This document shows, one piece after another, positions 27,656 to 32,074 of a stretch of 46,054 nt of DNA. The notes beneath the pieces are model-generated. The model did no database searches. It saw nothing but the letters and a program-made list of their open reading frames with translations, and was not told the DNA's origin. The position numbers were made by a program, and so were the translations under genes. The DNA is from Escherichia phage vB_EcoS_ACG-M12: sequence record NC_019404.1. One strand, 5' to 3'. The stretch's first letter is position 1. The number at the start of each line of letters is the position of its first letter.

Positions 27656-28306
27656 ATGCAAATTTCAGAATCATGCAAATCAATTTTAAACGCGCTACAC
27701 ACTGCAAAAGCAATGTTTGCAAAGGCTGAGCGCTCTAAGCAGAACTCGCACCTTAAAAACAAGTACGCAACATTAGATGATGTTTTAGCAGCCGTGGAGC
27801 CTGGTTTAGATGAGTGTGGGCTTGTAATGTTTCAGAGCGTAATTGATAGTGAAGCAACGGGGCTGCTAAAGGTAGAGACAAAGCTATTCCACGCAGAGTC
27901 AGGGGAGTGGGTTAGCTTCTTAATGATTGTTCCAATCAGCAAGAATGATGCTCAAGGTTACGGTTCTGCGCTCACATATGCTCGACGCTACGGCATTACA
28001 GCAGCTTTAGGTCTTAGTCAGGCAGATGACGATGGTAATCTAGCAGCGAAAGGTGTTAAAGACTTTAAGCGTGAGCTTGAAAAGTGCAACACTCTTGATG
28101 AGCTTCGTAACGTCTGGAAAGAAGCCAAGCAATCACTAGATGCTGCTGGATGGAAGGTTTTCGAACCTCACATTATCGAGCGAAAGGCAGAGATTGAGGC
28201 TAACGCGGCAACTGGCTTCAACCCAGCTACGCCAAAGAAAGTTGCAGAAAAAAGTAGTACTCAAGAAAAAGTTGAAGTAGAATCTCAACAAATCGACACA
28301 TTCTAA
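27656..28306 (+). CDS. erf: Erf-family single-strand annealing protein (216 aa)
   Basis: NSHLKNKYATLDDVLAAVEP and GSALTYARRYG segments match P22 Erf signature regions as recalled from memory. Confidence 0.65.
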   Translation: MQISESCKSILNALHTAKAMFAKAERSKQNSHLKNKYATLDDVLAAVEPGLDECGLVMFQSVIDSEATGLLKVETKLFHAESGEWVSFLMIVPISKNDAQGYGSALTYARRYGITAALGLSQADDDGNLAAKGVKDFKRELEKCNTLDELRNVWKEAKQSLDAAGWKVFEPHIIERKAEIEANAATGFNPATPKKVAEKSSTQEKVEVESQQIDTF

Positions 28307-28353
28307 ATTAAACGGGGCTTCGGCCCCAACATAAAACGAGAAGAGAGAATAAC

Positions 28354-28815
28354 ATGCACGTAATTACAGGTCAGATTCGCAAAGCTCCTTACACTAAAGA
28401 TGGTCAGAATGCCAAAGGTAACTGGAAAATGTACGCCATCGAGATGAGCGAATCATACAAGACTAAAGATGGCGAGCGTAAGTACAGTAATTACCGGATT
28501 ACGATGTTTGCCAGTGAGGCGCAGATTAGTTGGTATGATGAAGCATTTCAGGAAGGAAAAGTTATTTCTGTTAGTGGTGATTCATTGGCGGTTAATGAGC
28601 GTGAGCATAATGGAAAGGTTTATATTACGCTTGAGTTGCAGAATCCTCGATTGATGTTTAGCCAGCGCGGCAGTGAATTAGCTACACAGCAACAGCGCCA
28701 GCAGCATCAGCAACAGCAGCGGCAGCAACCACAGCATCAAAGCCAGTTTGAAGACGATATTCCGTTTGCTCCTATTGGTCTTCAGTACGGTATGTCAAAT
28801 ATTTATGTACTATAA
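28354..28815 (+). CDS. ssb: single-stranded DNA-binding protein (153 aa)
   Basis: Gln-rich linker QQQRQQHQQQQRQQ followed by the acidic tip FEDDIPF; unusual 15-aa extension after DDIPF. Confidence 0.7.
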   Translation: MHVITGQIRKAPYTKDGQNAKGNWKMYAIEMSESYKTKDGERKYSNYRITMFASEAQISWYDEAFQEGKVISVSGDSLAVNEREHNGKVYITLELQNPRLMFSQRGSELATQQQRQQHQQQQRQQPQHQSQFEDDIPFAPIGLQYGMSNIYVL

Positions 28816-29215
28816 AGTCTGTTTCAAATGTGGTGGGCTTAAGCCCATCACGGAGTTCTATAAACATAAAGCCATGGCTGACGGACGTGTAAATAAGTGT
28901 AATGAATGCAATAATGTTGATGTTAAATCAAATAGAAAATCAAAAATAGAATATTACAGAGAGTACGATAGAGAAAGGGGCAATAGACAGAAGGATGGTT
29001 ACGTTAAGGAGTATAGATCAAGAAACCCCATAAAATATAATTGCCACACGATTTTAAATAACGCTATAAGGGATGGTAAGATCAATAAAAAACCTTGCGA
29101 GGTTTGCGGGAATGATAAGGCGGTAGCTCATCATGATGATTACTCAAAACCAATGGATGTAAGATGGCTATGCCAAGCTCACCATATGCAATGGCACGCA
29201 GAAAACGGAGAATGA
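28805..29215 (+). CDS. HNH endonuclease with zinc ribbon (136 aa)
   Basis: CxxC ... CxxC (CFKCGG, CNEC) and AHHDDYS...WLCQAHHMQWH; start at the in-frame ATG overlapping the ssb 3' end (track start is TTG). Confidence 0.6.
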   Translation: MYYKVCFKCGGLKPITEFYKHKAMADGRVNKCNECNNVDVKSNRKSKIEYYREYDRERGNRQKDGYVKEYRSRNPIKYNCHTILNNAIRDGKINKKPCEVCGNDKAVAHHDDYSKPMDVRWLCQAHHMQWHAENGE

Positions 29216-29231
29216 TTAAACGGATAAAAGA

Positions 29232-29257
29232 TAAGGCCCCCTTCGGGGCCTTTTTTA
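29232..29257. terminator. bidirectional terminator between convergent genes
   Basis: AGGCCCCC-ttcg-GGGGCCT plus T6. Confidence 0.7.
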
Positions 29258-32074
29258 CGAAGCTGTATTTACCTGAAGATATGCACCATTAGTTGCACCA
29301 AACCATGCGTAAGCAGATCCGTAAGTTGTTGGGTTGTCATTTAAAATGAAATCACCCGCTCTAATTACGCACTTTGCTCCATATGTATCAGTGGGTCTTG
29401 CACTAAACCCATAGTCAACATATCTAAAACCAACCTTCGTTACGTTATCGTTAAGCGGGAAGATCCTTAAGAAGCTGGAATCTCTAAAGTCATTGTTCCT
29501 GAAAATTCCTCCTGTAAAGTTATCCATATCAAACATTGTTGTTAAACTTGAAGCAACAGTATTCATGAACTTGTTGCCTTCATATGTCGGAGCTACTACT
29601 TCATAGCCAACTCTTAGCTGAACAAATCCCCCATCAATAATATTGTCCTTGACTATTGGATATTGCCCGCCGATTGCTAAGCCACCAAACCCAGGTGTAA
29701 ATTTGCAACTATTATTACTAAATATAGTGCCAACCCACGCCTGATTTGTAAGGTATGGTGCCTTAGTGTCTGTCATGGTGTTCCCGGTGATAATCAATCC
29801 ATTCTTGGCCTGGATTCCCTCCTGGTAGCCCTGAATCGCTACGCCGCCACCAATCATAATGTTGCTGGATATAATAATGTTGCTCAACCCCTCATTAACA
29901 CCCCAATCACTTTCTGCATCATTTGTTATCAGTAAGTAGTGAGAAGAAGCCCTGCCAGTAGCGTCCGTAGTTATAATGCTTGTATTGCCTTTGCATATAA
30001 CATTGTTTGCCGCAAAAACCTCAACAAACATACCAGCACCTTCGTAGTAGTTATCCGTAACCGTTACGTTATTGCCAGCCGGGGTTATCCTTGACTGGAT
30101 AGATATTGGATAATAGAACTTGTTGGCGTGAGCGTAAGACCTTCGGCTTCCCTCGGATATTGCATAATCCTCCGCGAAAGTATGCCATGCCCTTCCTGAC
30201 TGTTTTGTTGTGTTTCCTATAAACTCTGAGTAGTCACAGTTTCTTGTGATTAAGCAGTAGTTAGCGTTGTATCTGAAGCTTGAATTTCTAAGAGATACGA
30301 ATGCATTAGGTAAGCCATTAAGAGCATCGGCATTAACAAAGGCCCTCGAGGCATTAACCTCCATACCCTCGATCACAACTGATGCGCATCCTTCAACCAT
30401 AAAACCAAACCAGTCTTCTCTTGGTTTATGCTCTGTATCCGTTGGTTGGATTGAGTAATCTGAAAAGTCAGTATTCCAGTTGAGTCCGCTAGCTTTAAAT
30501 GTGCAATATTTAAGCCCGAAAACAACCCTCTCGGGTGATGTGCTTCCAGAGATATCAATATCAACATCATTATTGGCAAAAATGTCAACAGTAAGTCCAT
30601 TGAGGAAGAATGCCGTTTGCCTTAACACTCTGTACTTATCATTGTACTGAACACCATCGGAGAATGAGACTTTCAGTCTTCCAGCGCTAATTCTTACCTT
30701 CCTGTTTGTATTGTGACCAAGGTTTATACATGCCATAACCGAGGCGTTTGATTCATTAACTCCAGACACATCATGACCAGCCCATTCGGTATGGATATCA
30801 TCAACACCTCCCGTAAACCTAACCCAGCAACCATTTTTACCTGGTGATGTCTCACCCGCTCCGCTAAGGAATCCTGGGAGCGTGGAATATGTACCATCAA
30901 ATGGAACTGTTGGGCTAAAGATGGTAACCCCATTGTGACTACTCTTGCTTACTGATGGATCCCAGTAAAACAAACCACCTCCAGAGTTTGCTCCAGAAAT
31001 ATAAGACCTGACATTTGCCAAGTTTCCATTCGTAGTTGGTTGCCGGATTAGTTCATAAATTGAATTAACTGAAGATAGCCCTAAATTACTCCTGGCAAGG
31101 CTTTTATCTTCAATATCAGAGAAATTCAATGATTTGTTGAAAGTCTCAGATTTTGAATAAACATCAAGTAAGCCCCTTACTCGCTGGGCGCTAGCTCCGC
31201 CAACCTGACTTCCTGATGCGACATAAAGCGCCTCTCTTGAATAGTAAGTTTTGCTTGGTGCCGTGCCAGTCTGAGTTAAATCAATCACCCTGTACGCATT
31301 ATCTGAGCCGGTAGATGCTGAAACTTGTATGTTCTTAACACCAGTAAGCCCCCTTGCTGACTTAACCTCAATCGTACAAAGTGTGCTATCGGAGTAGGTT
31401 GTATTTATCACCTCTGGAGCGTTGATCATTGCTGACTTTTGGCATAGGTATCTAGCCCCGGACTTGAAATCAAACGTATTCCAGTCAAGTTCTGTCAACT
31501 GAGGTGTATTCGAGCCACCAATACCAATATTGGCAAGAGTTACCAAAGTACCAGCGTCACCAGCATTATTAATTGCTGCAATTGTAGCGTCACGGGCAGC
31601 TGTTGTTGTGTTTCTTGCACTAACAGCAGTAGCAGCGCTATCTGCGGCGGCAATCTGGCTAGCTAAAGCATCCGCTGCTCCTTGCACTGACTGGCTTGCC
31701 AATTGCTCAAAGCGAGGCCAATCAAAAGAATCCTGACCAATGAAATCAATCAGGCTCTGAATGCTAGTTTCCCTACTCTGATAATAACGAAGTGTCTCCG
31801 CTACATTTTGAGCCAAACCCTGAACGCTAATCCCATCATGAGCAAGAATGGCATATCCAGTACCAGCAGGAACAGTTTCGCCATTTGGGTTATATACAGA
31901 CAATGAAGTGTCGCTGGTGATTTCAGAGATGGTGTAAATCTGCACAGGCTCTGTTTTGAATACAATTGTAGCACCAACACGGATTAGCGTTAGTGGCATG
32001 GTCCATTGAGTGCCAACACCAGTAACTTGACCGTTAGCTGCTAAACTGGCAGTTCCAGTATCATAAATTGCCAT
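29255..32074 (-). CDS. tail fibre/receptor-binding protein, possibly with a beta-helix domain (939 aa)
   Basis: N-terminus MAIYDTGTASLAANGQVTGVGTQW typical of fibre N-termini; Ala-rich shaft; Asn/Gly/Thr-rich C-terminal two-thirds; start at the ATG after GGAG. Confidence 0.6.
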   Translation of the reverse strand: MAIYDTGTASLAANGQVTGVGTQWTMPLTLIRVGATIVFKTEPVQIYTISEITSDTSLSVYNPNGETVPAGTGYAILAHDGISVQGLAQNVAETLRYYQSRETSIQSLIDFIGQDSFDWPRFEQLASQSVQGAADALASQIAAADSAATAVSARNTTTAARDATIAAINNAGDAGTLVTLANIGIGGSNTPQLTELDWNTFDFKSGARYLCQKSAMINAPEVINTTYSDSTLCTIEVKSARGLTGVKNIQVSASTGSDNAYRVIDLTQTGTAPSKTYYSREALYVASGSQVGGASAQRVRGLLDVYSKSETFNKSLNFSDIEDKSLARSNLGLSSVNSIYELIRQPTTNGNLANVRSYISGANSGGGLFYWDPSVSKSSHNGVTIFSPTVPFDGTYSTLPGFLSGAGETSPGKNGCWVRFTGGVDDIHTEWAGHDVSGVNESNASVMACINLGHNTNRKVRISAGRLKVSFSDGVQYNDKYRVLRQTAFFLNGLTVDIFANNDVDIDISGSTSPERVVFGLKYCTFKASGLNWNTDFSDYSIQPTDTEHKPREDWFGFMVEGCASVVIEGMEVNASRAFVNADALNGLPNAFVSLRNSSFRYNANYCLITRNCDYSEFIGNTTKQSGRAWHTFAEDYAISEGSRRSYAHANKFYYPISIQSRITPAGNNVTVTDNYYEGAGMFVEVFAANNVICKGNTSIITTDATGRASSHYLLITNDAESDWGVNEGLSNIIISSNIMIGGGVAIQGYQEGIQAKNGLIITGNTMTDTKAPYLTNQAWVGTIFSNNSCKFTPGFGGLAIGGQYPIVKDNIIDGGFVQLRVGYEVVAPTYEGNKFMNTVASSLTTMFDMDNFTGGIFRNNDFRDSSFLRIFPLNDNVTKVGFRYVDYGFSARPTDTYGAKCVIRAGDFILNDNPTTYGSAYAWFGATNGAYLQVNTAS

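Follow-up and report, generated by a model that had tools for sequence, protein, structure and literature searches.

The acidic C-terminal tip (SSB-Ct) of the single-stranded DNA-binding proteins of bacteria (SSBs) is a hub to which some 17-20 genome-maintenance proteins are recruited, and it is treated as essential that nothing follows it in the protein. In gp2.5, the SSB of phage T7, partners are bound through an acidic tail that ends in Phe. We analysed the ssb gene of Escherichia phage vB_EcoS_ACG-M12 (Drexlerviridae, Guelphvirus), whose complete genome of 46,054 bp was the window of this study. The E. coli protein (...MDFDDDIPF-COOH) and its phage and plasmid copies share with the ACG-M12 SSB the OB fold, the disordered linker and the acidic D-D-I-P-F; in ACG-M12, however, the motif is internal and 15 conserved residues follow it, and the canonical mode of docking has presumably been lost or changed. 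A gene for a putative homing endonuclease starts inside the codons of this tail.

A mobile endonuclease gene has been described beside a phage SSB gene. In T4, segG, a promoter-less gene for a free-standing GIY-YIG homing endonuclease, lies beside gene 32 (SSB) and has spread with co-conversion of markers on its flanks (PMC2988022). Nuclease genes, including those for free-standing HNH homing endonucleases, occur at recombination (mosaic) boundaries (PMC10448857), and the acidic C-terminal tail of T7 gp2.5 is mentioned in 10.1101/2025.11.11.687766. For ACG-M12 we consider it quite probable that tail and endonuclease form one 457-bp homing block on a tip-tail SSB, that the block arrived with co-conversion, that the endonuclease belongs to a lineage targeting tip-coding DNA, and that the tail is itself under selection.

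The ACG-M12 SSB and the insertion behind its tip

The ssb open reading frame (ORF; 28354..28815, + strand) encodes 153 residues and finishes ...QHQSQFEDDIPF(138)-APIGLQYGMSNIYVL(153)-TAA. The C-terminal stretch therefore reads ...QSQFEDDIPF-APIGLQYGMSNIYVL*, with the tip internal and 15 residues beyond Phe138; as a peptide it is ...QFEDDIPFAPIGLQYGMSNIYVL-COOH, the tail-less counterpart being ...QFEDDIPF-COOH. Although Pfam and NCBIfam searches gave no match, the product is a genuine SSB according to PHROG (phrog_44, E 5.6e-31), an AlphaFold model built with 53 homologues and Foldseek. The model contained a confident barrel at residues 1-106 (block-mean pLDDT 77-94), with residues 107-153, tail included, modelled as disordered, and of its top 50 Foldseek matches in the PDB nearly every one was an SSB or PriB OB fold (probability 1.0, target TM 0.5-0.6), with bacterial or phage SSBs in all the leading places. 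The OB core, the disordered linker and the D-D-I-P-F of bacterial-type SSBs were all present, and the free terminal Phe was missing from the encoded protein. Reading of the ORF agreed with the sequence-only reading, which had noticed an SSB extending 15 residues past DDIPF and a second gene starting inside the extension: the endonuclease ORF runs from the ATG at 28805 to the stop at 29213-29215, in a different frame and with an 11-nt overlap with ssb.

When the DNA was aligned with that of the HNH-less T1-like relatives EC3a and AHP24, homology broke exactly after the Phe codon and resumed at the TAA, showing a single 457-bp indel. Both relatives stop at the tip (EC3a ...FEDDIPF*, AHP24 ...SDEEDIPF*) and have a bidirectional terminator immediately afterwards; in ACG-M12 the original TAA, which directly follows Phe in the HNH-less alleles, was retained at 29225-29227, ahead of the common terminator. 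The insert consists of the 411-nt endonuclease ORF and 37 nt of preceding tail, after which come only the TAA and the terminator. The internalised tip supposed from the sequence was consequently corroborated, the insertion lying immediately behind the Phe138 codon and ahead of the original TAA, and the alignment with related phages placed the extension within the single indel. A group I intron or intein was rejected: no flanking ribozyme or Hint domain that could restore the host product is present, the insert leaves no space for a ribozyme, and splicing would have no downstream partner (in another locus, L367, the insert is 475 nt and the ORF 462). The coordinates of the features are collected in Table 1.

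Table 1. Features of the ssb-endonuclease locus of ACG-M12 (positions in the window)
Feature	Position	Strand	Basis or remark
ssb OB-fold ssDNA-binding domain (residues 1-106)	28354..28671	+	phrog_44, AlphaFold, Foldseek
Q-rich disordered linker (residues 107-131)	28672..28746	+	pLDDT <50; low-complexity Q/R/P sequence
SSB-Ct-type acidic tip FEDDIPF (residues 132-138)	28747..28767	+	sequence
15-residue tail APIGLQYGMSNIYVL plus TAA (residues 139-153), Y-type tip-tail member	28768..28815	+	
Free-standing homing-endonuclease-like gene, 136 aa	28805..29215	+	ATG inside tail codons
Block of tail and endonuclease, 457 bp, missing from HNH-less EC3a and AHP24	28768..29224	+	DNA alignment
TTA AAC GGA TAA, putative relic of the endonuclease's ancestral last codons (LNG*)	29216..29227	+	
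Bidirectional intrinsic terminator, right-hand homology of HNH-plus and HNH-less alleles	29233..29252	.	annotated terminator in EC3a, AHP24
Block of ssb, tail and endonuclease, putatively exchanged horizontally; identity to phiEB49 92-99%	28354..29224	+	segment-wise identities

An identical extension was found in phiEB49, an independent genome of 47,180 bp, and in ECH1 and SCS31, with diverged versions in ENA, Logan and IMG/VR contigs. ECH1 (MN164484.2) and SCS31 (ON081052.1) are, like ACG-M12, exactly 46,054 bp long, yet the three are 94-97.6% identical in the ssb region (97.6% for ECH1). Independent de novo assemblies would hardly agree exactly in length, which points to reference-guided assembly or coordinates; the independent support therefore comes from phiEB49 and the metagenomic contigs. 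The earlier suspicion that a sequencing or assembly frameshift near 28770 conceals a stop right after DDIPF had prior plausibility only, apart from the possible dependence of the ECH1 and SCS31 records. We give it practically no credence, because the same frame is kept in phiEB49 and in the ENA, Logan and IMG/VR contigs, because no frame has a stop within 45 nt of the Phe codon, and because the original TAA sits 457 bp downstream. Recoding that would expose the tip was rejected as well, neither alternative frame having a stop close to it.

Among the 120 closest homologues of this SSB, 113 end at ..IPF (107 with the strict acidic pattern and 6 with ..D[SV]IPF) and seven bear the 15-residue tail; all seven have the endonuclease or its remnant. 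This distribution bears on the idea that the tail was ancestral in T1-type SSBs, was lost in most lineages and received the endonuclease behind it later. In other groups of phages the tail was there before the endonuclease (phi92 compared with nieznany), which speaks for such an order of events, but we judge it very improbable in T1-type phages, given the 113 tail-less proteins, the endonuclease or remnant beside every tailed one, the single indel with the original TAA kept, and the PHROG and TIGRFAM SSB profiles, which stop at the tip.

The block appears to have been exchanged horizontally. A megablast match to phiEB49, which belongs to another subfamily (Rogunavirinae), spans positions 28277-29544 of the window approximately. 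Identity to phiEB49 was 99.0% in the OB-coding part of ssb, 92.2% in linker and tip and 98.2% in tail and HNH gene, compared with 62-63% in the flanking erf and 70-78% in the fibre gene; the pattern was reversed with the congener EC3a (erf 84-88%, OB domain 68%, fibre 3' end 93%). Since ssb, tail and endonuclease are 92-99% identical where the flanks are 62-78%, and EC3a shows the reverse, the mosaic is the one to be expected of homing with co-conversion of the flanks.

Between erf and ssb (28313-28328) there is a hairpin rich in GC, CGGGGCTTCGGCCCCA, which has a terminator score on the minus strand only; its position coincides with the left-hand limit of the block resembling phiEB49 (~28277-28354). 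Other, unrelated HNH genes were seen in the exo-erf-ssb module of T1-like phages, at exo|erf, at erf|ssb and upstream of exo (L004 905-1378, from AHP24; L005 1-289 and 1996-2499, with Pfam HNH_3 in L005), each overlapping or abutting a neighbouring gene. Their presence at several junctions suggests that this module is a hotspot for homing endonuclease genes.

A conserved tail on unrelated carriers

The tip-tail was defined as 15 residues after ..[DE]x[IVL]PF matching A-P-I-G-L-Q-(Y/E)-G-(K/R)-x-x-(I/L)-(H/Y)-x-(I/L), followed by a stop. The ACG-M12 tail fits 12 of the 13 specified positions, with M instead of K/R at position 9. Scanning of viral contigs (IMG/VR) for [DE]D[IV]PF-xxxGxQxG gave 32 loci, and 29 of them had a consensus tail of 15 or 16 residues; about 20 had no endonuclease within 800 nt. 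Among the carriers were SSBs of the canonical E. coli type, the T1-type SSB, gp2.5-like and phrog_2544 proteins, and proteins of 315-408 residues; the motif sits on at least five unrelated SSB carrier families (phi92, rV5, epsilon34, Vibrio and Pseudomonas phages, phage-plasmids). Two tip-plus-tail query peptides were covered over at least 80% by 119 and 153 GenBank phage records, which include phi92, rV5, PVP-SE1, GAP31, epsilon34, mEpX2 and many Vibrio phages. Tip plus tail was also matched by 62 plasmid records, mostly non-mobilizable and of 85-95 kb, implying that the module is not confined to lytic phages. Annotated SSBs with a tip-tail were noted on Enterobacter and Salmonella plasmids of ~85-95 kb, probably phage-plasmids (hits H221-H228).

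In phi92 gp156 the tail is followed by a terminator, without an endonuclease. In its relative nieznany, where the tail is identical, the endonuclease gene has its start within the tail codons. At rV5 ORF214 both tail and endonuclease are present. The SSB epsilon34 gp35 belongs to TIGR00621, a profile that stops at the tip, and bears a variant tail, APVTLPFPRHAIHAI. The same extension without an adjacent HNH gene, an occurrence that the sequence-only reading had named as refuting it, therefore exists outside the genus (phi92 gp156, epsilon34 gp35 and the ~20 IMG/VR contigs); inside the T1-like group all tail-bearers have the endonuclease or its remnant. The related suggestion that an HNH insertion remodelled the ssb 3' end held insofar as the 457-bp insertion contains the endonuclease, but not as regards an extension made as its by-product, because the tail is a pre-existing conserved module.

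Several observations pointed to selection on the peptide. The four T1-type tails differ chiefly at third codon positions, and among 32 unique sequences the codon-position entropy was saturated at third positions and nearly nil at first and second ones, also at codons that the search had not imposed. The stop was fixed at codon 16 in 28 of the 32. The ratio pN/pS in the carrier frame was 0.21 for E-type and 0.30 for Y-type tails, values that the collection patterns push downward through pN, with about 1 in frame +1 and >2 in frame +2. The tail was kept where the endonuclease had decayed in T1-like phages (L005, 19 contigs; L007), and a search with the tail core found 22 of 24 real tails directly behind a tip. 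Taken together, the tail appears to be a selected peptide, independent of the endonuclease, and a pre-existing 15-residue module under purifying selection rather than a by-product of the endonuclease leader.

These data can be set against accidental read-through, in which the cassette would have removed the stop and the 15 residues would be a meaningless translated leader. Read-through could account for the single indel that separates ACG-M12 from HNH-less T1-like phages, and other endonuclease loci (L020, L028, L033, L039, L082) do have miscellaneous tails of 4-36 residues that resemble it. As an origin of the 15-residue tail, though, it is scarcely credible: the same motif occurs on unrelated carriers without endonuclease, pN/pS reaches 0.2-0.3 in the carrier frame only, the stop position is conserved, the tail outlasts endonuclease decay, and the endonuclease-less tailed loci are not recent, near-identical deletions (pS 0.57-0.83).

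A different kind of constraint would exist if the tail served the endonuclease, by supplying its start codon, by bringing ssb ribosomes to the start or by being its recognition site. In Y-type tails the ATG arises from TAT-GG (Y7-G8; nieznany, rV5) or TAT-GT (Y13-V14; ACG-M12), a K codon of the endonuclease motif K-x-C-F-K-C-G uses the tail's stop, and the endonuclease occurs at both borders of tail-coding DNA, as expected if this DNA lay within the recognition site. Nevertheless, about two thirds of the tailed loci keep the tail without the endonuclease, phi92 has a terminator after it, and substitutions are synonymous in the carrier frame, the endonuclease frame having pN/pS >2. Moreover, E-type tails have a stop in the overlapping frame of the endonuclease, which there starts after the tail. 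We regard a tail maintained for the endonuclease as unlikely, and an independently selected peptide remains the preferred reading.

To judge from SSB with green fluorescent protein (GFP) appended at its C-terminus, which no longer binds ExoI and requires a wild-type copy alongside it (PMC7293020), the tail probably blocks canonical SSB-Ct docking unless it is removed. As to what the peptide would do instead, its selection and strict contiguity with the tip make it possible, though tentatively so, that it is a composite or second interaction motif re-specifying the tip. A regulatory mask or removable cap is rather unlikely, a constraint through endonuclease expression or recognition somewhat less probable still, and a degradation or remodelling signal quite unlikely. 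It may perhaps be that phages, phage-plasmids and prophages graft the tip-tail (..DDIPF-APIGLQ(Y/E)G(K/R)xxΦ(H/Y)xΦ-COOH), as a composite short linear motif, on any SSB scaffold, where it would retarget the tip to a particular partner from host or phage or act as a removable cap ('pro-tip'), and that it was spread horizontally by an endonuclease that homes to tip DNA and takes the tail from one ssb gene to another, non-homologous one; we advance this idea with reserve.

Three further functions were considered for the tail. Nascent-peptide arrest or a coupling role is unlikely in view of the terminator after the tail stop in phi92 and the normal spacers at endonuclease-less loci. Resemblance to the ClpX MuA-type degron (RRKKAI; PMC8138137), with basic residues and then A-I/L, is superficial only. 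The tail does not fit the beta-clamp-binding motif QL[SD]LF either.

The endonuclease and the gene ends it accompanies

The 136-residue protein has a Cys-rich N-terminal ribbon and a putative C-terminal beta-beta-alpha unit with HHDD...H. Pfam and NCBIfam gave no match, not even to Pfam HNH, and nothing significant was found in a PDB sequence search or by Foldseek with the endonuclease model. We infer a homing endonuclease of the beta-beta-alpha-Me (HNH/EndoVII-like) type, with a presumptive activity and target. Neither a promoter nor a terminator was found on the + strand between ssb and the endonuclease gene, nor a Shine-Dalgarno sequence ahead of the ATG at 28805, which lies 8 nt upstream of the ssb stop. 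As there is no Shine-Dalgarno and the ssb stop is located 8 nt past the ATG, the endonuclease most likely depends for its expression on coupling of its translation to that of ssb. The ACG-M12 protein ends at a TGA four codons short of the TAA used in phiEB49 (..AENGE* compared with ..AENGEGLNG*); ECH1 has the same TGA, and the truncation is minor, the C-terminus being otherwise conserved (..NGE(G/A)LN..).

Homologues of the endonuclease were present in 503 GenBank phage records (tblastn). In the first three inspected, from unrelated phages, the endonuclease was directly behind a gene ending in an SSB-type tip: ..DFDDDIPFN* in Vibrio phage K367, ..DDDIPF-MYIGGQEGRMFLHMI* in Pseudomonas phage SYP and ..GMPF* in coliphage SKA49. 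In a systematic survey of 80 IMG/VR loci with homologues of 38-96% identity, the end of a tip-bearing ORF was directly upstream in 73. The residues after Phe in these 73 numbered none in 17, one in 41 (N in 34), 2-6 in 3, 15 in 4 and another 7-40 in 8. With their last 45 residues removed, the upstream proteins fell into 17 sequence clusters, and the first downstream ORFs into 59 clusters of 75; across the loci, the tip-coding end is the only constant part. As a reciprocal control, the endonuclease was found behind 59 of 103 DDIPFN-TAA sites, against 3 of 106 DDDIPF-TAA sites. The lineage thus appears specialised on tip-coding gene ends. A 45-nt leader derived from the 3' end of an earlier host gene of the endonuclease was discarded as an explanation, since the genes upstream of distant homologues are tip-bearing SSB-like genes themselves.

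The commonest state beside the endonuclease was a tip extended by one residue, mostly N (..DDIPFN*) and more rarely S, K or R (41/80; L009, L015-L091), and DDIPFN* without endonuclease was seen at 44 of the 103 sites. One residue past Phe should already remove the free Phe carboxylate. Endonuclease-bearing DDIPFN* loci (L092-L201, for example L103, L190 and L197) have a common structured leader, AAT TAA GTCCC...GGGAC GTAAAA, followed by an ACCTC...GAGGT pairing that would sequester the Shine-Dalgarno of the endonuclease, and this leader has the look of a conserved element for translational control in the cassette. A comparable hairpin, GCCC...GGGC GTAAAA, which may be a footprint, occurs in about 20 near-identical DDIPFN* contigs that lack the endonuclease. 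In another class (L045, L047, L066, L071, L072, L077), ..DD(E)IPF is followed by a hydrophobic, transmembrane-like tail of 12-22 residues, for example DDDIPF-LWLLAFVAAACSQVIA*; these genes have an ATGA overlap with the endonuclease, and their upstream parts are K/A/P-rich and not Q-rich.

The endonuclease was present or absent at one precise site in several comparisons: ACG-M12, ECH1 and phiEB49 against EC3a and AHP24; nieznany against phi92; and L361 and L367 against L337 and L350. L361 and L367, the exceptions to the 22/24 contiguity, have the endonuclease between tip and tail. There the cassette supplies the stop (in L367 its own ATT CCT TTC TAA), which leaves the carrier with a free ..IPF end, and the tail-coding DNA, still intact, is cut off from it on the downstream side of the endonuclease. 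The same phage group contains tailed alleles without endonuclease (L337, L350, L334, L351) and one with the endonuclease after the tail, the ACG-M12 arrangement (L341). Three allelic states in one phage group imply that tail and endonuclease are separable, and from these alleles the endonuclease appears to insert at either border of the tail DNA or at a tail-less tip. Among 125 non-redundant endonuclease contexts, the tail was upstream in 17, downstream in 2 and absent in 106; splitting of a tailed allele by the endonuclease was accordingly rejected as a general rule, the orphan downstream tail being found in 2/125 contexts.

Proposed mechanism and comparison with known systems

In the mechanism we propose, a donor allele with the order tip-tail-endonuclease would home into an ssb of the T1 type that had no tail, the left crossover falling within the tip-coding DNA or upstream of it, and this order would drag the tail into the recipient. 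The block would thereby be placed precisely behind the last Phe codon and before the original TAA. Recombination has probably since exchanged the ssb-tail-endonuclease unit between Drexlerviridae subfamilies, leaving the co-conversion tract. The endonuclease lineage would be specialised on DNA encoding the SSB tip, which host-interaction constraint may conserve across unrelated phage SSBs; because the tip-coding sequence is common to them, the element could jump between non-homologous ssb genes. In the protein, the tail would prevent docking of the C-terminal Phe and its free carboxylate in partner pockets, and would re-specify, mask or regulate the tip.

Full-text literature, whose coverage is incomplete, yielded no published description of the tail or of an association between endonuclease and SSB tip. 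The occurrence of the tail on many unrelated phage SSBs challenges the view of the tip as the very end of the protein, and could reveal a new partner or regulatory mode of phage SSBs, or functional internal tips. The tip-tail lends itself to direct tests with peptides and is present in well-studied phages (rV5, phi92, PVP-SE1, epsilon34). If the more tentative idea of a grafted motif is true, the mobile element would pass on a protein-interaction motif and not a gene. An endonuclease homing to the motif DNA of non-homologous genes would explain the crossing of phage families and the reshuffled SSB C-termini, and would account for mosaic boundaries at ssb in T1-like therapeutic phages.

With regard to the systems mentioned at the outset, T7 gp2.5 ends at an aromatic residue, whereas the tip-tail proteins run on for 15 conserved residues, although some of the tip-tail carriers are gp2.5-like in sequence pattern. 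Free-standing phage HNH endonucleases (T4 mobE; the T5 nicking HNHs, such as SciA; I-HmuI) have in common with the ACG-M12 endonuclease a small Cys/His-rich protein (in ACG-M12 a presumed nuclease), presence/absence polymorphism and a mosaic boundary; the latter differs in lacking a Pfam HNH match and in a probable target that is the interaction-motif DNA of non-homologous genes, not one orthologue. T4 segG resembles the ACG-M12 element as a free-standing, promoter-less endonuclease gene that adjoins and, presumably in ACG-M12 also, targets the phage SSB gene, with co-converted flanks. In contrast to segG, the ACG-M12 endonuclease would be of the beta-beta-alpha-Me and not the GIY-YIG type, and its SSB is of the OB/SSB-Ct type and not gp32-like; the element is located at the 3' tip-coding end, changes the coding of the SSB and is found in many unrelated phage families.
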